DNA of 15,191 bases from a virus (lineage: Duplodnaviria; Heunggongvirae; Uroviricota; Caudoviricetes), in IMG/VR virus record IMGVR_UViG_2698536480_000008, one strand, 5' to 3'. Position 1 is the first letter of the stretch, and the number at the start of each line of letters is the position of its first letter. The notes beneath the pieces were generated by a model. That model worked only from the letters and a program-made list of their open reading frames with translations. It made no database searches and was not told where the DNA came from. Made by a program: the position numbers and the translations under genes. Positions 1 to 12,405 of this stretch are shown here, piece after piece.

Positions 1-156
1 TTACTCCCCAAGTTCGTAAGCTGTGAAGACAGCGACCTCCGTCTGGTCGGTTCGGATTCGTACCTCGCAGAGGTCTTTCCTCGTTACCAGTACCGTCACT
101 ATAACGGTTAAACAGATGACGATCAGGGCGACTAACATCGCCTTTTGCTGCTTCAT
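1..156 (-). CDS. hok: Hok/Gef-family type I toxin, 51 aa (HokD/HokC-like); an in-frame upstream extension to 213 gives a 70-aa mok-like ORF
   Basis: Minus-strand ORF ending at the TAA at 3..1. Translation from the internal ATG (156..154) is MKQQKAMLVALIVICLTVIVTVLVTRKDLCEVRIRTDQTEVAVFTAYELGE: a single transmembrane helix plus the conserved RKDLCEV.R motif of Hok/Gef toxins, very close to HokD/RelF as I remember it. Paralogue assignment is uncertain. Confidence 0.75.
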   Translation of the reverse strand: MKQQKAMLVALIVICLTVIVTVLVTRKDLCEVRIRTDQTEVAVFTAYELGE

Positions 157-415
157 AGCCTGCTTCTCCTTGCCTTTCGGCACGTAAGAGGCTAACCTAC
201 ATGTGCAAAGCATGAAATTGGCCTCAGATTAATGTTAAGCGTCTTGCCGGATGCGTAATGTTAACTGGGGCTTTTCTCTATCTGCCTTTGATGTTCATGC
301 CCGAGGCAGATAGCCTCAAGTATCCGCAGCTATTTGTCTGCTGTTACCACCTACCTGCGCCAATCACTGACTCTACAAAGATCTATCCGCGATAACATTT
401 TGAGTTTAAGAACTT

Positions 416-444
416 TTGCGTACGCACCAAAAGATGCATATACT
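416..444 (+). promoter_or_regulatory. Candidate sigma70 promoter (TTGCGT, 17-nt spacer, TATACT) for the ORF1-ORF2 operon
   Basis: -35 TTGCGT at 416-421, 17-nt spacer, -10 TATACT at 439-444, about 40 nt upstream of a GGAG ribosome-binding site and the ATG at 486. Found by eye; AT-rich DNA yields chance matches. Confidence 0.4.
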
Positions 445-485
445 AGACTAGTCATAGTTCTAATCTGCTTGATTATGGAGTCAGG

Positions 486-1544
486 ATGAGTTTCCTTTCT
501 GAACAAGACGTACAAAATTTAGTCATTAATAAAATGATCTTTCACGTTGTAGGTAAGAATCTTGAAGCACCGACACTTCTCAAAGAAATAAAACCAGTTC
601 AGCATGTGGATTTTTTTCTTGAACGTATCAAATCTTCACTGAAAGGAAATCTTTTCACTTTTCTGGAGAATTCAAATACCGAAAGAATCCTGCGTATCAT
701 TAGAGATAAAGCAGATGCTGAAGCTAATTGTTTTACAGAACAATCGAAGCTACTGGCCAGTGATTTTCAGTCACACCATTCTAGCGGTAACACGAGTATG
801 GGATGCTTTTTCTTATTTGAATTGGTTTCAGATAAGGAAAAATTCTATGCAATTATAAAATACGATAATGAAGATGTGGTTCGTTATGTTCTTGACGAAA
901 AGTTATCTGAAGAACAAATGCCTACTTTAGAAAGATTTCATGAAACTTTCGTAAAAAAAGCTGAGGCAATGCAAAAAATAGCGTTAATTCAACTTGATCC
1001 AAGTGGGAAAGGCGGGAAAGTTATTGTAAAAGACAGGAGTAAAAGAACCAATATTTCAGGATATTTTAAAGGCTTCTTAAATGTTAAAAGAGTCAACTCT
1101 GAAATTGAACTTTGCAATAAGCTTATTGATGCGCTGAAAATAACCTTCAAAAGGCATAAAGAATTATTGCCAGAGTCAATTCAAAAAAGCGGCGTAAATA
1201 AAATATATGAAGTTTTAAGCAGAGCTGATTTCGAATATAATCCTGAAGATGCTTCTCCGTTATTGACCAGCATTTTTGGGCCGTTAGATGAAAAATCACC
1301 AATTCTCAACACATTCAAAACTCAAACAAAAAATGCTGGTATTGAAGGCGAATCCTTTACTATAAAAGCAGATGGCATTCATAAACCACCAAGACGAAAA
1401 ATTGAAACTGCAGAAAGTGTAGTAATTAGTTATAATGAAGATGACCGTCCAGAAATAAGAAACTTAGATGATGGGCGAAAACAAATTATTGTTACTACTG
1501 CGAGGATTATTACTGATGACATCGATACTTCAAAAAATCGATGA
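486..1544 (+). CDS. Hypothetical soluble protein, 352 aa; possible distant NA37/NdpA(YejK)-like nucleoid-associated DNA-binding fold; first gene of the candidate cargo operon
   Basis: ATG at 486 preceded by GGAG (477-480); uninterrupted 352 codons in ~35% GC DNA; no hydrophobic segments. Local resemblance to YejK as remembered (GCFFLFELV vs GGFVLFCHY; GYFKGFL vs DFFMDFL; N-terminal I.H.. pattern). The 3' end overlaps ORF2 by 29 nt. Confidence 0.7.
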   Translation: MSFLSEQDVQNLVINKMIFHVVGKNLEAPTLLKEIKPVQHVDFFLERIKSSLKGNLFTFLENSNTERILRIIRDKADAEANCFTEQSKLLASDFQSHHSSGNTSMGCFFLFELVSDKEKFYAIIKYDNEDVVRYVLDEKLSEEQMPTLERFHETFVKKAEAMQKIALIQLDPSGKGGKVIVKDRSKRTNISGYFKGFLNVKRVNSEIELCNKLIDALKITFKRHKELLPESIQKSGVNKIYEVLSRADFEYNPEDASPLLTSIFGPLDEKSPILNTFKTQTKNAGIEGESFTIKADGIHKPPRRKIETAESVVISYNEDDRPEIRNLDDGRKQIIVTTARIITDDIDTSKNR

Positions 1545-2949
1545 GTCTATACAGGCGTCAAGGAAAGACCCTGAATTTTTGGCATCAGAATCAATAAAAA
1601 ATGATTCTGCGCGCGTTCTAATTTCTGCCAAAATGGACAAAGATGCACTCATTCTTTGGCAGTACGTTTACGAAAACGTACCAAATTGGATTGAAATTAC
1701 TGTTAAAGATGACTGTAATGATGAAGTAAAACCATCGTCATGCAGTGAAGGTGATAAACTTAACATTACGCTAAAATGCATTGCATTCGAAAATAACAGG
1801 TATATTTTTACGCTCGAAGGGTGGAATGTTTTTCTACACAATGATGATTTAGTATCAATAACCAATAAAGTGAATATTCTCGGTTTGAAACATGGATTTG
1901 AAACTTTAGGATATTCTGTTGAGCCATGGAACCATGCTCCAGAAAAAATTGAACCTAATGAAACCGTACGAACTTCAATCAATTTACAGAGCTACGTTAA
2001 ATTCTATTCTAGTGAGTTCATGCCTGCATCTGATATAGCTCCTTGGGTACTTTATAAAATGCCTGAGGCAGAGGACAACTTTTTCAAAAAATGGTTACAA
2101 GTTTCCTGCAATATGCTTTGTCGCACTCTCGTTAATGAATTATTAGCAGATGAAAAGAAATCAATTTGTTTAACTGGAAAGCCACCAAAAAAATTAATTT
2201 ATGGAGATCCAGACATTCTGCTTTCCGACTATTCAGTTTTACAAACTGTAATAAACTGGATCTTTATTGAGGGCAATGAGATTGAACTCAAACATACTTT
2301 CTTCACAAGTGAGTTAGCACGAGAATGGCCAGAGTATGTATCCTTCTGTGAGGGTTTACCAAAAAAACTCCCTATGGCCTTTGAGTCAGCAAAATTACTA
2401 TATAAGGCCCACATTCGCGCTAGCAGCAGAGAGACTATTAAATCTCTGTCCGATCTAAGGAAAACCTTAGCTGAAGACACGCAAAAAATAATAAGTCAGT
2501 CTAAAGACATCACATCCGCTCTTTGGAAAGATCTGGCTCTGGTTATAAGTCTATTTGCAATAAAATATGCGCTAGACGCATCAAAGATTAATATAACCAA
2601 TAACATATTCCCATATATGTTCTTCGCGTTATCTATATATATTTTTATATCTCAGGTTACAACTCTCTTCATAAATAAAAATTACTTTAAGATACTTGAT
2701 AATACTAGGCTAGTCTGGAGAGATAAACTATATGGTTTTCTTGATGATACTGACTATGAGAATCTTGCAGTCACACCATTAAGAGAGGCATACAAAGCTT
2801 ATCAGATTATAGCCACATTCGTTGTGATTCTGACTTTGCTGATTTCATTTATAATGATCATATTAGGATTCTCAATGCTTGATGAACATGCTACGAATGC
2901 AATTACCTCTTGGCTCAGTTCTCACTTAATCAATAGTTACTGTAGTTAA
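1516..2949 (+). CDS. Hypothetical membrane protein, 477 aa: ~360-aa N-terminal soluble domain plus two to three C-terminal transmembrane helices; candidate effector
   Basis: ATG at 1516 with GAGGA (1502-1506) 9 nt upstream, overlapping the ORF1 stop (translational coupling). The six-frame track begins at 1468 but that start has no ribosome-binding site. Strongly hydrophobic segments NIFPYMFFALSIYIFISQVTTLFI and YQIIATFVVILTLLISFIMIILGFSML, plus a weaker LALVISLFAIKYAL. No recognisable catalytic motif. Confidence 0.7.
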   Translation: MTSILQKIDESIQASRKDPEFLASESIKNDSARVLISAKMDKDALILWQYVYENVPNWIEITVKDDCNDEVKPSSCSEGDKLNITLKCIAFENNRYIFTLEGWNVFLHNDDLVSITNKVNILGLKHGFETLGYSVEPWNHAPEKIEPNETVRTSINLQSYVKFYSSEFMPASDIAPWVLYKMPEAEDNFFKKWLQVSCNMLCRTLVNELLADEKKSICLTGKPPKKLIYGDPDILLSDYSVLQTVINWIFIEGNEIELKHTFFTSELAREWPEYVSFCEGLPKKLPMAFESAKLLYKAHIRASSRETIKSLSDLRKTLAEDTQKIISQSKDITSALWKDLALVISLFAIKYALDASKINITNNIFPYMFFALSIYIFISQVTTLFINKNYFKILDNTRLVWRDKLYGFLDDTDYENLAVTPLREAYKAYQIIATFVVILTLLISFIMIILGFSMLDEHATNAITSWLSSHLINSYCS

Positions 2950-2976
2950 TTTAAGGCGAGAGAAACTCGCCTTAAA
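2950..2976. terminator. GC-rich stem-loop between the convergent ORF2 and Q-like gene stops; possible bidirectional terminator or RNA-stability hairpin, non-canonical
   Basis: tttAAGGCGAG-agaaa-CTCGCCTTaaa: an 8-11 bp perfect stem with a 5-nt loop, flanked by T3 upstream and A6 downstream on the plus strand. Neither transcript gets a proper U-tract immediately 3' of the stem, so intrinsic termination is uncertain. Confidence 0.35.
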
Positions 2977-2979
2977 AAA

Positions 2980-3498
2980 TCAACGGTAATAGATACAACC
3001 TGCAATAAATCCCATTGCCATTTGCATTTTTTTCCTTATTTTACCATCTGAACATTCGTTTATCTTAGCTAAACAACGCAATGAAACTCCCATAACAAAA
3101 TGAGCGATAATTAACTCATAGTCATCTATCCTATATTGTTTAAGCCTCAACATGCAGGTATCAATTATACCCCCTTCATCATTGCTGCACTGACGACGTG
3201 ATTTTTTACCATGAGGAACAACATTTTTATATTTATCAGCTATTTCCTGCCAATCAATAGAACTATTTTCAGCTACAGCCCAGGCTCCCCAACCGTCCAA
3301 AATATCATATATATTAGCATTGCTATCTACCTGTTTTTTATATTCTTTTTTGAAGCGCGCAAGAAGCATCCTAGCCATCGTTATTATTTCTATACTTGTA
3401 ACTGATTCATAAGCATCAGGAGAAATAATTCTCCCATCACTTAATGCCCCATCACTAAGATTTGCTATTTCCAATAATCGTTCTTTAGTTATTTCCAT
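2980..3498 (-). CDS. Phage antitermination protein Q homologue (Q82/Q933W-type, Phage_antitermQ-like C-terminal domain) with a ~60-aa N-terminal extension
   Basis: Minus-strand ORF. The ATG at 3498..3496 has GGAG 6 nt upstream; the track start at 3510 is a GTG. The C-terminal ~115 aa carry motifs I recognise from Q of Stx phages: WGAWA, SRRQC..DEGGIIDTCMLRLK, Y.LI..HFVMG.S, CSDGKI.K. The gene is AT-rich (~35% GC), unlike the backbone. Confidence 0.55.
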   Translation of the reverse strand: MEITKERLLEIANLSDGALSDGRIISPDAYESVTSIEIITMARMLLARFKKEYKKQVDSNANIYDILDGWGAWAVAENSSIDWQEIADKYKNVVPHGKKSRRQCSNDEGGIIDTCMLRLKQYRIDDYELIIAHFVMGVSLRCLAKINECSDGKIRKKMQMAMGFIAGCIYYR

Positions 3499-3658
3499 TA
3501 TTATCTCCACCGCCTTTTCGGGCGGCCTCCTGATGATTTGAGAGTGCAGGAATTCCTCCGATTAAGGACTCTATTTTATTCACAGTGCTGAATTTAATTA
3601 TTCAGATTTGGATTATGCTTTCTCTTTCACTTCACCAAGTTCCGATTATTAATTTGGC

Positions 3659-4081
3659 TCACAACAGCACCTCTTGAAAGTTTCCCCGATAAAACGCCAG
3701 TACACGCTGCATAACTTCTCTTTTACGGCACTCACTACAAATTATATTATGACGCCTGTCGTAACGACGTATTTCTCCGTCAGATAACGAGCAGATAAGG
3801 TCAGGATCAACCATAACCGGTTCCTTCGACTTTGCACTCGAGAGTTTTTTGCTGGCGTTTTGCCAGTCTTTACGTGCCTGCTCAGACGGGAATAACCCGT
3901 AGCCAGAGTTGTATACGTAACCACTCGAAACCAGCTCTTTGGCGAGAATACTTATCAGATATCTGGTTGCCCCTGTTTTAGCTTCCAGTTGTCGTAACGT
4001 CTCTCGCTCACTCTGGCGTACGAGATCAACAATCTGCCCTTTAATTTTTTCTCGCTCTTCCTGTGTTAATACTTTTGCCAT
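3659..4081 (-). CDS. Hypothetical prophage protein, 140 aa, with a Cys/His-containing C-terminus
   Basis: ATG at 4081..4079 preceded by a strong GGGGAGGG ribosome-binding site; the track start at 4147 has none. Sits 16 nt downstream of the preceding gene on the same strand. No motif recognised. Confidence 0.5.
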   Translation of the reverse strand: MAKVLTQEEREKIKGQIVDLVRQSERETLRQLEAKTGATRYLISILAKELVSSGYVYNSGYGLFPSEQARKDWQNASKKLSSAKSKEPVMVDPDLICSLSDGEIRRYDRRHNIICSECRKREVMQRVLAFYRGNFQEVLL

Positions 4082-4097
4082 AAGCCCTCCCCTAGAA

Positions 4098-4859
4098 TCA
4101 CTTTTCCGACACAATACGACTGGAGGAATCGACAATCTGACGGACAATATCCTGGTGCTTGTTCAACTCACGCAGCGCGGCGCAGACACGCTCCCACTTC
4201 TGGACATGATTTTTCGCCCGACGCAGTTCGCGGTTTGCCATATGCAGTGATGGTAAAACCAGGTCATCCGCTCGCGTTTCAGTAAACGATGGCAGCGACT
4301 GCACAATGTCCGCCACAGTTTCTGTTTTAATATCTTCCTGTGTTGCAGCCTCCTGTACTGGTAACGCAACACCTGCGGTCTGAGGAAAGGCCTTACCATC
4401 AGTTTCCGCTACCGATGCTGCTTTCGGCTCTGCTGGTAAATTATCGCCCGGTATGCAGTAACGAAATTTACCGCCCTGATTTACGCGAATCAGACGACCT
4501 TTGCTGATTGCCATTGCCAGCGTTGAAGCCACTTTGCGTGATGTGGTACCAAACAATGTAGCCAGCTCATCAGCCGTTTGTGGTCCTCGTTGTTCAATCG
4601 TCGCGGTTAAATCGCACTCTGAGATTTTCGCTACTGTTGCTGTGGTGATTTCTTCCGGCAGTTCTGCCTGCGCTGGCTGTTCCTGCTGAACATTGTTATC
4701 AGCCACACGCCAGGTGTACGCGCTTTTATCAACAAAACCAGCCTTTTTCAGTTCCCATAGTTCGTTCAGCACTTCTTCACGACTGATATCAAGTCGCGCA
4801 GCAAGTTCTATGGATGTGGCTTTTCCCATTGCTTTCAGTGCGTCAAAAACAGTCTCCAT
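4098..4859 (-). CDS. Hypothetical prophage protein, 254 aa; possibly a full-length counterpart of the YdaW-type protein that follows ydaV in Rac
   Basis: ATG at 4859..4857 with a GGGAG ribosome-binding site, 22 nt downstream of the ydaV stop. N-terminus [43 protein letters not shown] looks like a winged-helix domain. Family assignment from memory is uncertain. Confidence 0.55.
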
Positions 4860-6504: not shown

Positions 6505-6630
6505 TTAATGAACAATGACAGAATCGTCGGAAGAACCGCCGCCGCTGAAATGCGCTTTCCGGTAAACGGCTTGGACTGCATCATCATGCGCATCAATTGC
6601 CGTACTTAACGCTTCCTGCGCCGCCAGTAT
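6505..6630 (-). pseudogene. ydaT: 3' remnant of ydaT (last ~40 codons) without a start codon, left by a ydaS-ydaT deletion
   Basis: Minus-strand frame ending at the TAA at 6507..6505 translates to ...LAAQEALSTAIDAHDDAVQAVYRKAHFSGGGSSDDSVIVH*, matching the YdaT C-terminus as I remember it. Upstream of about 6630 the frame runs into the ydaS ORF in another frame. Confidence 0.45.
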
Positions 6631-6826
6631 CAGGACGAAGTTCTTCGCACAGAACCTCACCTCTTGTTGCACGTTCAATTGCTGGACATCTCTCGGCAGG
6701 CAATTGACGTACCCCTTTGATCCATTGATTTACGCTTGGAGGTGATACACCTAAAAGCCTAGCCATTGCTGATTGCCCACCGACAACAGCACAAGCTTGC
6801 TTGAATGAATAGTTCTCTTTTTTCAT
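6593..6826 (-). CDS. ydaS: Cro-like helix-turn-helix regulator, 77 aa, probably C-terminally altered by a deletion
   Basis: ATG at 6826..6824 with a GGAG ribosome-binding site. MKKENYSFKQACAVVGGQSAMARLLGVSPPSVNQWIKGVRQLPAERCPAIERATRG is a Cro/CI-type HTH, divergent from racR. K-12 YdaS is ~98 aa by memory; here it ends early in ...TGGAGSVKYGN. Confidence 0.7.
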   Translation of the reverse strand: MKKENYSFKQACAVVGGQSAMARLLGVSPPSVNQWIKGVRQLPAERCPAIERATRGEVLCEELRPDTGGAGSVKYGN

Positions 6827-6949
6827 CGAATGAACTCCAAAAACACACAGAAATATTAGGCGACGCCTAACGCAATTGTCAATAGGCTGTGCCTAATGCG
6901 GTAAGGGTAGGGATTGCCTAATGTAATGCGCATAGGAGAATATTAAGCA
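6827..6949. promoter_or_regulatory. Divergent ydaS/racR promoter-operator region with TTAGGC-type palindromes
   Basis: Perfect 15-bp palindrome TTAGGCGACGCCTAA (6855-6869), inverted repeat TAGGCTGTGCCTAA (6883-6896), a further GCCTAA half-site (6916-6921), and the 13-bp motif ATTGTCAATAGGC (6875-6887). Lies between the divergent start codons of a repressor/Cro pair. Confidence 0.55.
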
Positions 6950-7426
6950 ATGCTTAGTGGTAAAGACTTAGGCCGAGCGATAGAGCAGGCCATTAACAAA
7001 AAAATCGCATCGGGATCCGTCAAATCAAAGGCGGAGGTCGCACGCCACTTCAAAGTCCAACCACCATCAATTTATGACTGGATTAAGAAAGGCTCTATAA
7101 GTAAAGATAAACTTCCAGAATTATGGCGTTTCTTTTCTGATGTTGTTGGTCCAGAGCATTGGGGGCTTAACGAATACCCCATACCAACCCCCACCAATTC
7201 AGATACAAAAAGTGAACTTTTAGATATAAACAACCTTTATCAAGCAGCCTCTGATGAAATAAGAGCGATTGTAGCTTTCCTGTTATCTGGAAATGCTACA
7301 GAACCAGATTGGGTTGACCACGATGTTCGCGCCTACATAGCAGCGATGGAAATGAAAGTGGGTAAGTATCTGAAAGCTCTAGAATCTGAACGGAAAAGCC
7401 AGAACATCACAAAAACTGGAACTTAA
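6950..7426 (+). CDS. racR: Rac prophage repressor, 158 aa
   Basis: ATG at 6950 with an AGGAG ribosome-binding site (6934-6938); 158 aa with an N-terminal HTH (KAEVARHFKVQPPSIYDWIKKG). Divergent from the Cro-like gene; length matches RacR. Confidence 0.85.
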   Translation: MLSGKDLGRAIEQAINKKIASGSVKSKAEVARHFKVQPPSIYDWIKKGSISKDKLPELWRFFSDVVGPEHWGLNEYPIPTPTNSDTKSELLDINNLYQAASDEIRAIVAFLLSGNATEPDWVDHDVRAYIAAMEMKVGKYLKALESERKSQNITKTGT

Positions 7427-7879: not shown

Positions 7880-8035
7880 ATGCAAAAAATCGACCTCGGC
7901 AACAACGAATCCCTGGTGTGCGGCGTGTTCCCCAACCAGGATGGAACGTTCACTGCCATGACGTATACCAAAAGCAAAACATTTAAAACCGAAACTGGTG
8001 CGCGCCGATGGTTGGAGAAGCACACAGTAAGCTAA
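7880..8035 (+). CDS. ydaF: Small Rac prophage protein, 51 aa
   Basis: ATG at 7880; MQKIDLGNNESLVCGVFPNQDGTFTAMTYTKSKTFKTETGARRWLEKHTVS. Its stop overlaps the convergent sieB stop. Position (sieB-proximal) and length fit ydaF. Confidence 0.6.
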   Translation: MQKIDLGNNESLVCGVFPNQDGTFTAMTYTKSKTFKTETGARRWLEKHTVS

Positions 8036-8520
8036 CGATTAAAACGTCTACTCCTGCTGTTCCAGAATAACTTCATAAAATGGGAGTATTTTTCGGTGAC
8101 GAGATAATAAGAACAGTTTGCGCTATCACTCTGATGTTGAATGATGCCCTTCCGTTCTAATTTTTTCATAACCGGGTTACGGCAAGGAGAAGTGATAATA
8201 AGATTTCCTGTTTTAAGGAAATCTTTAAATACAGCGATTTCTTTCTCAGATAAACGAAGCAATACTCGTTGCTCTGGTAGTAATGAATAATGCTTTTGAA
8301 TATGTGCTCGCAATCTTGAGAAGGAAATGGCGACCACGAAAGAAAAGGCAAAAACGATAATCTGAAAGAGCCAAGGTATTTCAGTATAAGCATTGAATGC
8401 GACAGTAAACTCTTTCGGTATCAGCCAGAGAGTGAGACCAAAAATGATAATCGTATACATAAGTCTTTCGAGTGGCTCGTTAGCAAAAAGTTTCAACAAT
8501 GGAGTAAATACATCCAACAT
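8032..8520 (-). CDS. sieB: Superinfection exclusion protein B, 162 aa, membrane protein
   Basis: Start at the internal ATG 8520..8518 (MLDVFTPLLKLFANEPLERLMYTIIIFGLTLWLIPKEF...), with hydrophobic helices. Length and sequence match Rac SieB as remembered. The 203-aa track ORF is an unsupported upstream extension. Confidence 0.85.
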   Translation of the reverse strand: MLDVFTPLLKLFANEPLERLMYTIIIFGLTLWLIPKEFTVAFNAYTEIPWLFQIIVFAFSFVVAISFSRLRAHIQKHYSLLPEQRVLLRLSEKEIAVFKDFLKTGNLIITSPCRNPVMKKLERKGIIQHQSDSANCSYYLVTEKYSHFMKLFWNSRSRRFNR

Positions 8521-8961
8521 ATCAATAACTCTCAACTGTAAGGGTATTGAAATGTTAACACAAGCTCTCGCTGTAGGGGTATAGCCGAGACCACCGAAGC
8601 CCGGAGGTGGTGAAATAAAACCGGGCACAACACGAAGGCGCATTTCCGATATCCATAAAGAGTCGGTCTTGTCTGTTAAATTTAAATGGTGGGAGTGCGC
8701 CTCCGGTTGTAAATAACGACATTGCTGTGTGTAGTCCTGGCGGCATCAGTTTTTTTCTTGAAGTTCGGCTGATGTCCGCCCTTTTTAAAGTGAATTTTGT
8801 GATGCGGTGAATGCGGCTAAGCGCACGTGGCACAGTTAAAAGTCATGTTAGTCCTTATTGGTTTGGGTGGGAAAGCCGACTGTAATTGTTAACTGGTTGC
8901 AGTCACCTGGAGGCACCAGACACCGCATCAACAAAGTTCATTTGTAAAAATGGAGATAATT

Positions 8962-9804: not shown

Positions 9805-12405
9805 ATGAGCACAAAACCACTCTTCCTGTTACGGAAAGCGAAAAAATCATCCGGTGAACCTGACGTCGTCCTGTGGGCAAGCAACGATTTTGAATCGACC
9901 TGTGCCACTCTGGACTACCTGATCGTTAAGTCAGGTAAAAAACTGAGCAGCTATTTTAAAGCTGTTGCCACGAATTTTCCTGTCGTTAATGACCTGCCCG
10001 CTGAAGGTGAGATCGATTTTACCTGGAGTGAACGCTATCAACTCAGCAAAGACTCCATGACATGGGAACTAAAACCGGGAGCAGCACCAGACAACGCTCA
10101 CTATCAAGGCAATACCAACGTCAACGGCGAAGACATGACTGAGATTGAGGAGAATATGCTACTCCCAATTTCTGGCCAGGAACTGCCCATTCGTTGGCTT
10201 GCTCAACACGGCAGCGAAAAACCGGTAACGCACGTTTCACGCGACGGACTCCAGGCATTACACATTGCTCGGGCTGAAGAACTACCGGCTGTTACTGCCC
10301 TGGCTGTTTCCCACAAAACCAGCCTGCTCGACCCGCTGGAAATTCGCGAACTCCACAAACTGGTTCGTGACACTGACAAAGTTTTCCCTAATCCTGGTAA
10401 TTCAAACCTGGGACTGATAACTGCTTTTTTCGAAGCATACCTGAACGCTGACTACACCGATCGAGGAGTGCTGACAAAAGAGTGGATGAAGGGTAATCGT
10501 GTTTCACACATCACTCGCACGGCTTCCGGTGCTAATGCTGGCGGCGGAAACCTCACCGATCGCGGCGAAGGTTTCGTACACGATCTGACGTCACTGGCGC
10601 GCGACGTAGCCACTGGCGTACTGGCCCGTTCAATGGATCTGGACATCTATAACCTTCATCCGGCACACGCTAAACGCATTGAGGAAATTATCGCTGAAAA
10701 TAAACCGCCCTTTTCTGTTTTCCGCGACAAATTCATCACCATGCCTGGCGGGCTGGATTATTCCCGCGCCATCGTGGTTGCGTCCGTAAAAGAAGCACCA
10801 ATTGGGATCGAGGTCATCCCCGCGCACGTCACTGAATATCTGAACAAAGTACTGACTGAAACCGATCATGCCAACCCTGATCCGGAAATCGTGGATATTG
10901 CCTGCGGTCGCTCCTCTGCCCCGATGCCGCAGCGAGTAACAGAAGAAGGAAAACAGGATGATGAAGAAAAACCGCAACCATCTGGAACAACGGCAGTTGA
11001 ACAGGGAGAGGCTGAAACAATGGAACCGGACGCAACTGAACATCATCAGGACACGCAGCCGCTGGATGCTCAGTCACAGGTAAATTCTGTTGATGCGAAA
11101 TATCAGGAACTGCGGGCAGAACTCCATGAAGCCCGGAAAAACATTCCATCAAAAAATCCTGTCGATGCCGATAAATTGCTTGCTGCATCACGTGGTGAAT
11201 TTGTTGACGGAATTAGCGACCCGAACGATCCGAAATGGGTAAAGGGGATCCAGACTCGCGATTGTGTGTACCAGAACCAGCCAGAAACGGAAAAAACCAG
11301 CCCAGATATGAATCAACCTGAGCCAGTAGTGCAACAGGAACCGGAAATAGCCTGCAATGCCTGCGGCCAGACTGGCGGGGATAACTGCCCTGACTGTGGT
11401 GCGGTGATGGGCGACGCAACATACTAGGAAACATTCGATGAAGAGAGTCAGGTTGAAGCTAAGGAAAATGATCCGGAGGAAATGGAAGGCGCTGAACATC
11501 CGCACAATGAGAATGCTGGCAGCGATCCGCATCGCGATTGCAGTGATGAAACTGGCGAAGTCGCAGATCCCGTAATCGTAGAAGACATAGAGCCAGGTAT
11601 TTATTACGGAATTTCGAATGAGAATTACCACGCGGGTCCCGGTATCAGTAAGTCTCAGCTCGATGACATTGCTGATACTCCGGCACTATATTTGTGGCGT
11701 AAAAATGCCCCTGTGGACACCACAAAGACAAAAACGCTCGATTTAGGAACTGCTTTCCACTGCCGGGTACTTGAACCGGAAGAATTCAGTAACCGCTTTA
11801 TCGTAGCACCTGAATTTAACCGCCGTACAAACGCCGGAAAAGAAGAAGAGAAAGCGTTTCTGATGGAATGCGCAAGCACAGGAAAAACGGTTATCACTGC
11901 GGAAGAAGGCCGGAAAATTGAACTCATGTATCAAAGCGTTATGGCTTTGCCGCTGGGGCAATGGCTTGTTGAAAGCGCCGGACACGCTGAATCATCAATT
12001 TACTGGGAAGATCCTGAAACAGGAATTTTGTGTCGGTGCCGTCCGGACAAAATTATCCCTGAATTTCACTGGATCATGGACGTGAAAACTACGGCGGATA
12101 TTCAACGATTCAAAACCGCTTATTACGACTACCGCTATCACGTTCAGGATGCATTCTACAGTGACGGTTATGAAGCACAGTTTGGAGTGCAGCCAACTTT
12201 CGTTTTTCTGGTTGCCAGCACAACTATTGAATGCGGACGTTATCCGGTTGAAATTTTCATGATGGGCGAAGAAGCAAAACTGGCAGGTCAACAGGAATAT
12301 CACCGCAATCTGCGAACCCTGTCTGACTGCCTGAATACCGATGAATGGCCAGCTATTAAGACATTATCACTGCCCCGCTGGGCTAAGGAATATGCAAATG
12401 ACTAA
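9805..12405 (+). pseudogene. recE: recE (exonuclease VIII) interrupted by an in-frame amber codon at codon 541 (TAG 11425-11427); otherwise a full-length 866-codon frame
   Basis: The 540-aa ORF (9805-11427) and the 307-aa ORF (11482-12405) are in the same frame, separated only by the TAG and 18 sense codons ([18 protein letters not shown]); 540+1+18+307 = 866, the RecE length. The downstream part holds the RecE nuclease domain and ends in ATGACTAA, overlapping the recT start. Confidence 0.85.
11482..12405 (+). CDS. recE: Possible C-terminal RecE fragment (307 aa, complete exonuclease domain) if translation reinitiates or the amber is suppressed
   Basis: In-frame ATG at 11482, but GGAGGA sits only 1 nt upstream, so initiation is doubtful. 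The fragment covers the C-terminal region known to suffice for RecE nuclease activity. Confidence 0.3.

Follow-up and report, generated by a model that had tools for sequence, protein, structure and literature searches.

What could a protein that resembles a nucleoid-associated protein (NAP) be doing on a prophage, directly upstream of a gene for a membrane protein? This question is raised by ORF1 and ORF2, two overlapping genes in a 15,191-nucleotide stretch of Caudoviricetes DNA (IMG/VR record IMGVR_UViG_2698536480_000008; hereafter, the window). A first-pass annotation, made from the sequence alone, had suggested that ORF1 is a divergent NA37/NdpA (YejK)-like protein recruited as a sensor, and that its position beside a membrane protein would provide a nucleic-acid sensing input. 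Recently, PANGU systems were described as two-gene operons that encode a YejK-like NAP and an effector (Li et al., bioRxiv 10.64898/2026.04.06.716658, April 2026). Based on the profile searches, structure predictions and comparative genomics reported here, we consider it likely, by analogy with type II PANGU, that ORF1 and ORF2 form a coupled anti-phage module, in which a NAP sensor is paired with a membrane effector, and which is carried as low-GC cargo by a Rac-type prophage.

Evidence that ORF1 is a divergent relative of YejK

Profile searches place ORF1 in the NA37 family. The Pfam NA37 model (PF04245) matches it at 48.3 bits, with a gathering score of 24.6 (E = 1.2e-12), and the match spans residues 18-335 of ORF1 and positions 1-316 of the 325 in the profile. 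A precomputed PF04245 assignment is found on every one of 79 close homologues of ORF1 (79/79). The relationship is also recovered in the opposite direction, as a hidden Markov model (HMM) of the ORF1 family gives E. coli YejK 26.3 bits. When the ORF1 family, represented by 131 diverse relatives, was compared with the YejK family, represented by 34 orthologues, hhalign aligned ORF1 11-339 with YejK 1-318 over 302 columns (93% probability, E = 3.3e-7). It should be noted that hhalign detects this similarity only with broad profiles on both sides; a narrow ORF1 alignment compared with the single YejK sequence failed (probability 0.6%). A BLASTP comparison of ORF1 with E. coli YejK finds nothing (E = 9.6), and therefore the term divergent is accurate for ORF1. 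A phmmer search with ORF1 against PDB sequences likewise missed the YejK structure, 9be2. The ORF1 subfamily is discrete, with its profile retrieving 339 clusters from 1.84 billion representatives.

The predicted structure leads to the same family. YejK has a two-domain fold that was described as novel, with no other relatives in the PDB (Schumacher et al. 2024, PMC11229321). We built an AlphaFold2 model of ORF1 on 50 homologues, with a mean predicted local distance difference test (pLDDT) score of 85.5, and a Foldseek search with this model gave a sole PDB match at E <= 0.001, which is 9be2 (E = 2.4e-7, probability 1.00; 13% identity in the structural alignment). There was no confident match to an unrelated fold. 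Together, the sequence profiles and the predicted model confirm that ORF1 is a very divergent NA37/YejK relative with the two-domain fold of YejK, which bears out the family assignment in the first-pass annotation. Chance resemblance was rejected on the Pfam, fold, hhalign and family-HMM statistics. We also rejected the possibility that ORF1 is a housekeeping YejK orthologue, on the BLASTP result, its location in a low-GC prophage island and a neighbourhood that is not the rplY-yejK-yejL arrangement. Public annotation names ORF1 (WP_001586997.1 in RefSeq/PGAP) a 'nucleoid-associated protein'; in PHROGs it matches only phrog_1974, a family of unknown function, and an NCBIfam search gave no match for either ORF1 or ORF2.

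YejK features retained and altered in ORF1

The family assignment was originally drawn from three pairs of short motifs. The YejK strings of these pairs (IALHQL, GGFVLFCHY and DFFMDFL) are all present in YejK of E. coli K-12. Two of the ORF1 strings occur as quoted, GCFFLFELV at residues 106-114 and GYFKGFL at 192-198, while the one quoted as I.FHVV is actually MIFHVV (residues 17-22), a trivial discrepancy. The proposed register also holds, since in the hhalign alignment MIFHVV and IALHQL (with a common His), GCFFLFE and GGFVLFC (with a common Gly), and GYFKGFL and DFFMDFL occupy the same columns. A YejK relative of approximately 13% identity was thus correctly recognised from three short motifs by a reader that saw only the sequence.

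YejK carries two dimerisation arms, a beta6-beta7 hairpin in the N-domain and a C-terminal beta-strand extension, and forms a 30-angstrom electropositive pore in which the clusters R173/R176/K177 and R276/R280/K284 are required for DNA binding; the protein is acidic overall (PMC11229321). Its isoelectric point (pI) is 4.9, and that of ORF1 is 6.7. In the hhalign alignment, in which the register of the pore residues is uncertain by 1-2 residues, the column of YejK R173 holds R184 of ORF1, with K or R in 91% of the 131 relatives, and the column of K284 holds R304, within the patch K300-P-P-R303-R304-K305. At least two K/R residues lie within ORF1 182-188 in 89% of these relatives, and at least three within 294-305 in 86%. 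ORF1 therefore appears, from the alignment, to keep basic residues opposite the DNA-pore clusters of YejK, and DNA binding by ORF1 is a prediction from this correspondence. In the model, four C-terminal strands (residues 303-335) align with YejK 291-318 and are predicted to form an arm that resembles the main dimerisation element of YejK, and the region of the N-domain arm (residues 129-157) appears in the model as helices of low confidence (pLDDT 54-66).

Three residues of ORF1, G106, K125 (window positions 858-860) and K164 (975-977), are the same in every one of the 131 diverse members of the subfamily. K125 and K164 face Val and Ile, respectively, in the YejK alignment, and we regard these two lysines as candidate subfamily-specific functional residues.

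A retained YejK fold with basic residues at the pore positions, encoded on horizontally acquired low-GC DNA, would also suit a simpler role, in which ORF1 is a foreign NAP that organises or silences prophage or host DNA, with ORF2 as an accessory membrane protein or tether and without any function in defence. Plasmid-encoded NdpA-type proteins are known and are thought to organise or silence DNA. The relationship between ORF1 and its membrane partner bears directly on this alternative.

ORF1 and ORF2 as an inseparable module

We placed the start of ORF2 at the methionine chosen by PGAP, where the family has a conserved N-terminus (MxSILxxI), and on these two grounds rejected the start of the longest open reading frame at position 1468. 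The resulting overlap of the two genes is likely to reflect translational coupling. The AlphaFold2 model of ORF2 (pLDDT 89) consists of an alpha/beta domain at approximately residues 1-230, a helical region, and a bundle of four long helices at 305-476. Hydropathy identifies two transmembrane-like segments in this bundle, at 364-382 and 431-449, both conserved in the family. The soluble region (residues 1-340) has a net charge of -10 and a pI of 5.2, close to the family medians of -9 and 5.29. No match to ORF2 was found in Pfam above threshold, PADLOC, NCBIfam or PHROGs. A Pfam match to Saf_2TM (E = 0.046) was far below threshold and was discarded.

Homologues of ORF1 and ORF2 share genomes from Enterobacterales to Methylomonas, Methylobacterium and Sphingomonas. 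A scan for the ORF2 family, using one genome per species, yielded 66 loci, which also include Pseudomonas, Bradyrhizobium, Limnohabitans and one Terriglobus (Acidobacteriota). In each of these (66/66), an ORF1-type gene lies directly upstream of the ORF2 relative on the same strand, and in 65 of the 66 there is an overlap between the two reading frames, usually of 29-41 nucleotides. When 63 loci are compared in pairs, the identities of the ORF1 proteins are tightly correlated with those of the ORF2 proteins (r = 0.957; reached by 0 of 999 Mantel permutations), and the mean pairwise identity is 36% for ORF1 and 29% for ORF2. ORF1 and ORF2 are an inseparable two-gene module whose members diverged together.

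For a general NAP, there would be no need of a membrane partner that is obligatory, encoded by an overlapping gene and co-diverging. Nor is the pair tied to replication or partition genes; its location changes from cargo slots of prophages to islands with defence genes or integrases. Published operons of a NAP and a transmembrane protein, moreover, protect against phage (Li et al.; DefensePredictor, PMC13092281). We therefore consider it unlikely that ORF1 serves simply as a foreign NAP, and favour its action together with ORF2 as an anti-phage module.

Genomic contexts of the pair

The pair is mobile across the Pseudomonadota (alpha-, beta- and gamma-proteobacteria), changing place between prophages and integrase or defence islands. 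In prophages of Serratia proteamaculans and two prophages of Yersinia enterocolitica its attitude is that seen in the window, with antiterminator Q on one side, the holin/lysis genes on the other and the pair antisense to them, and in Serratia an Avs5 gene is found approximately 3.5 kb away. In a second lineage from E. coli, which shows 60% identity, the pair adjoins a P4-type integrase and lies approximately 60 bp from the Septu genes PtuA/PtuB. In Methylorubrum it is beside AbiEi/AbiEii and a Fic protein, in Sodalis it is amid integrases and large helicase/PLD genes, and in Enterobacter mori it is inside an integrase island. These contexts are the behaviour of mobile defence cargo, though a defence neighbour is not recognisable everywhere.

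The Septu PtuA of the second E. coli lineage (L008:13303-15840, minus strand) has an unusual architecture, being an 845-residue fusion with an N6_Mtase domain (Pfam E = 4e-42) N-terminal to the PtuA ATPase.

The slot that the pair occupies in the window holds unrelated genes of unknown function in other E. coli strains. It is limited by antiterminator Q/DUF977 on one side and by hok/DUF1367 on the other. In strain E2348/69 (L077:2733-4883) it contains three genes, for proteins of 363, 142 and 197 amino acids, oriented as ORF1-ORF2, and in strain 2020N21-246-1 (L076:1171-5805) it contains a gene for a 675-residue protein together with small genes. Searches of PADLOC and Pfam with the cargo of these two strains returned no match but DUF1971, and the status of the slot as a defence hotspot was not demonstrable from them; the alternative genes are possible uncharacterised accessory or defence systems.

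The prophage that carries the pair

The window covers the left arm of a prophage of the Rac type, located at ttcA, with genes for an integrase, RecT, RecE, SieB, a RacR-like repressor, YdaS/Cro, ydaU, ydaV, DUF1627, DUF977, a gene of the antiterminator-Q family and hok/sok (Table 1). The G+C content of positions 486-3500 is approximately 34%, compared with approximately 50% in the rest of the window, and among 5426 complete genomes of E. coli, 29 carry the whole ORF1-ORF2 island. The pair is thus low-GC cargo of this prophage.

Table 1. Positions of the features discussed here, numbered from the first nucleotide of the window.
Feature	Position	Strand	Remarks
hok/sok type I toxin-antitoxin locus	1-325	-	complete; directly upstream of ORF1
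Candidate operon promoter (TTGCGT, 17 nucleotides, TATACT)	417..445	+	weak, by eye; 3/6 and 5/6 matches to the consensus hexamers
Shine-Dalgarno-like GGAG	477..480	+	read from the sequence; 6 nucleotides 5' of the ORF1 start codon
ORF1	486..1544	+	ATG at 486, stop ends at 1544; 352 amino acids; WP_001586997.1; proposed DNA-bound sensor
ORF1/ORF2 overlap	1516..1544	+	29 nucleotides; PGAP start of ORF2 at 1516
ORF2	1516..2949	+	477 amino acids; WP_046788432.1, hypothetical in RefSeq; proposed membrane effector
Inverted repeat AAGGCGAG-AGAAA-CTCGCCTT	2953-2973		8 bp, GC-rich; within the 30-nucleotide gap between convergent ORF2 and Q
Antiterminator-Q gene	2980-3510	-	adjoins the ORF1-ORF2 pair, convergent with ORF2; itself low-GC
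DUF977 protein, Ren-like	3659..4147	-	PHROG 'Ren-like exclusion protein', E = 8.9e-43
YdaS/Cro-like ORF	6593..6826	-	77 amino acids; sole ORF between ydaU and the racR-like gene; no ydaT
racR-like gene	6950..7426	+
SieB	8032..8643	-	Pfam E = 3e-31; second exclusion-type gene of the prophage
recE	9805..12405	+	in-frame stop at 11425-11427 (GDATY-stop-ETFDEE); Gln there in strain 13E0767

Two features of this setting suggest other functions for the pair. The two genes overlap and lie on mobile DNA, one of them encodes a membrane protein, and a type I toxin-antitoxin locus is their direct neighbour; the pair could act as an addiction module in the style of toxin-antitoxin systems, stabilising the prophage, in which case ORF2 would be a membrane toxin and ORF1 would be the antidote to it. 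In the published NAP systems, however, neither gene alone nor the pair is toxic and the NAP is an activator (Li et al.), and ORF1 does not look like a typical labile antitoxin, being far too large for one and better conserved than its partner ORF2. We regard an addiction module as highly improbable. The prophage also carries exclusion-type genes, SieB and the Ren-like DUF977 gene, and ORF2, as a membrane protein without a known fold relative, might cause superinfection exclusion or another membrane-level effect. It would act on the inner membrane, perhaps preventing the entry of DNA, and ORF1 would be a regulator that does not sense chromosome damage. Such a function would leave no role for a full-length partner resembling a DNA clamp that is kept in every locus. 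Furthermore, the published type II PANGU system acts by abortive infection, and T4 denA mutants, which lack the host-DNA nuclease EndoII, escape it, implying a trigger that follows phage entry (Li et al.). We therefore doubt that exclusion is the function of the pair. All three alternatives are less favoured than an anti-phage module of sensor and effector because they are less compatible with the obligate pairing and with the published phenotypes.

Several further observations concern the flanks of the pair. Within the hok/sok locus, which is 94% identical to sokW of Stx phages, Rfam identifies sok at 151-325 on the minus strand (99.4 bits), and the Hok/Mok ORF is at 1..213. A promoter scan 5' of ORF1 found no consensus site, and the candidate in Table 1, which falls below the threshold of the scan, would be at best a weak promoter of the ORF1-ORF2 operon as judged from its hexamers. 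A terminator scan reported none 3' of ORF2 and did not score the inverted repeat there as an intrinsic terminator; the repeat is followed by an A-run on the plus strand, and on the minus strand it is preceded by a T-run. The total counts of the promoter and terminator scan were not above those in shuffled sequence.

A Phage_antitermQ gene convergent with the ORF2 gene, even overlapping its 3' end, is also found in the Serratia and Yersinia prophages (L006:12496-12858; L078:12515-12865; L079:4847-5197). In E. coli, the Q variant of the window is present in 42 genomes and the pair in 29, and Q and the pair may travel together. In strain YZ_2_2 (NZ_CM146015.1, 2575596-2579566), the island matches in two pieces over a span of 3971 bp, compared with 2771 bp, and an IS5-like ISKpn26 transposase is annotated inside it, such that an insertion sequence splits the operon in this strain.

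Elsewhere in the window, the immunity region (6593-7426) differs from that of the otherwise near-identical prophage of strain 13E0767 (L001:20276-21617). The in-frame stop in recE divides the gene into an ORF with the Exonuc_VIII N-terminal region (9805..11427) and a DUF3799/PDDEXK ORF (11482..12405).

A putative sensor of chromosome loss

The E. coli type II PANGU operon lowers the plating of T4 by 3-4 logs, for which both genes are required (Li et al.). Its effector, Pag2B, has an N-terminal acidic DNA-mimic ('DMK') domain and a C-terminal transmembrane domain, and its NAP, Pag2A, quits the nucleoid on infection and binds the N-terminal domain of the effector with a dissociation constant (KD) of 19 nM. 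In the published model, the NAP is released when phage nucleases degrade the chromosome, and it reports the loss of an intact host chromosome (bioRxiv 10.64898/2026.04.06.716658).

By analogy with this system and with YejK, we infer that ORF1 itself is a sensor and that the locus has a defence activity. ORF1 dimers would encircle chromosomal DNA non-specifically and would be held on the nucleoid in healthy cells. An infecting phage that degrades the host chromosome would free ORF1, which could then bind the cytoplasmic N-terminal domain of ORF2 and turn on a membrane-damaging activity. The infected lysogen would die or stop growing before the phage cycle is completed, and this abortive infection would protect the prophage-bearing population. 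ORF1 (WP_001586997.1) is also listed as a 'Predicted novel defense gene', with a score of 8.42, in supplementary file 3 of DefensePredictor (PMC13092281). The earlier suggestion that a NAP beside a membrane protein provides a sensing input is consistent with type II PANGU, with the strict coupling of ORF1 to ORF2 and with the mobile and defence contexts of the pair. It needs correction in what is sensed, as the published NAP reports the loss of the intact host chromosome and does not detect foreign nucleic acid.

A number of observations weigh against this interpretation. The template modelling score (TM-score) of the ORF1 model to YejK is low, at 0.37, with no tight superposition, which probably reflects the orientation of the domains and the arm in the model. 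The acidity of the ORF2 N-terminal region, as measured by the net charge of the whole region, is only mild and below the expectation for a DNA-mimic domain, and fold searches with ORF2 returned generic helical bundles only. A search of PADLOC-DB v2 (2023), which has models for Kiwa and further systems with membrane proteins, gave no match at E <= 10 for either ORF1 or ORF2. A MazE/PIN pair is the only recognisable defence-type neighbour in Methylomonas, and in Rhodoblastus the pair has no recognisable defence neighbour. ORF1 and ORF2 are likened to Pag2A and Pag2B by architecture and description, and not by sequence. Finally, DS-1, a validated E. coli pair of an NA37 protein (WP_000355468.1) and a membrane protein (WP_000150292.1) (DefensePredictor, Science 2026, PMC13092281), differs from ORF1-ORF2 in both components. 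Its NA37 protein has an N-terminal zinc ribbon and scores 53 bits with the YejK profile and 5.3 bits with the ORF1-family HMM, and its membrane partner has no detectable similarity to ORF2. Based on the comparison of both proteins by hhalign (0.2% for each) and HMM (5.3 and -1.7 bits), we rejected DS-1 as a member of the same lineage.

Comparison with known systems

ORF1 shares family and fold with YejK/NdpA, to which it aligns collinearly over its full length, and the two have conserved His, Gly and F-x-x-F-L motifs in common. In contrast to YejK, which is encoded by a housekeeping chromosomal gene, ORF1 is prophage cargo and is always coupled to a membrane-protein gene. In type I PANGU, the NAP Pag1A is paired with Pag1B, a GRel toxSAS (Li et al.). 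The proposed sensing logic would be the same, in that a YejK-like clamp freed from a degraded chromosome activates its partner via a DNA-mimicking domain. The effectors differ, however, since that of type I is a soluble alarmone synthetase and ORF2 has no toxSAS domain in Pfam.

We tentatively raise the idea, about which we remain somewhat doubtful, that ORF1 and ORF2 represent a separate lineage of NAP sensor and membrane effector, one that is neither the validated PANGU of E. coli (PANGU-Ecu) nor DS-1, that is marked by the invariant residues K125 and K164 in the sensor and by an effector whose fold lacks a known relative, and that is specialised as antiterminator-Q/lysis-slot cargo of lambdoid prophages in Enterobacterales. 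This slot is the position of the Shiga-toxin genes in other phages. If such a lineage exists, YejK-like clamps would have been recruited independently to membrane effectors at least two times in E. coli alone. We regard the pair as a further member of the class described in 2026, and possibly as the very system that was already tested. Since the concept of NAP-effector defence, the NA37 annotation of ORF1 and the listing of ORF1 as a predicted defence gene have all been published, the present analysis is of value as confirmation and cataloguing, and not as a discovery. It documents a sensor and an effector inherited as a unit across alpha-, beta- and gamma-proteobacteria, a variable slot beside antiterminator Q in Rac/lambdoid prophages, and an effector without a known fold relative.

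Of the published systems, DS-1 resembles the pair in being a two-gene E. coli system with an NA37 gene first, followed by a gene for a protein with C-terminal transmembrane segments, and DS-1 is experimentally protective. Type II PANGU differs from the pair in that the N-terminal acidity of ORF2 is modest. The two nevertheless share a bicistronic operon in E. coli in which a YejK-like NAP comes first and a protein with a soluble N-domain, mildly acidic in ORF2, and a C-terminal transmembrane region comes second, and both are linked to defence and mobile elements and occur across phyla, in the case of ORF1-ORF2 with one acidobacterial locus. Based on these similarities, we suggest that the locus is a natural, prophage-borne example of the defences in which a chromosome-coating clamp reports the destruction of the host genome.

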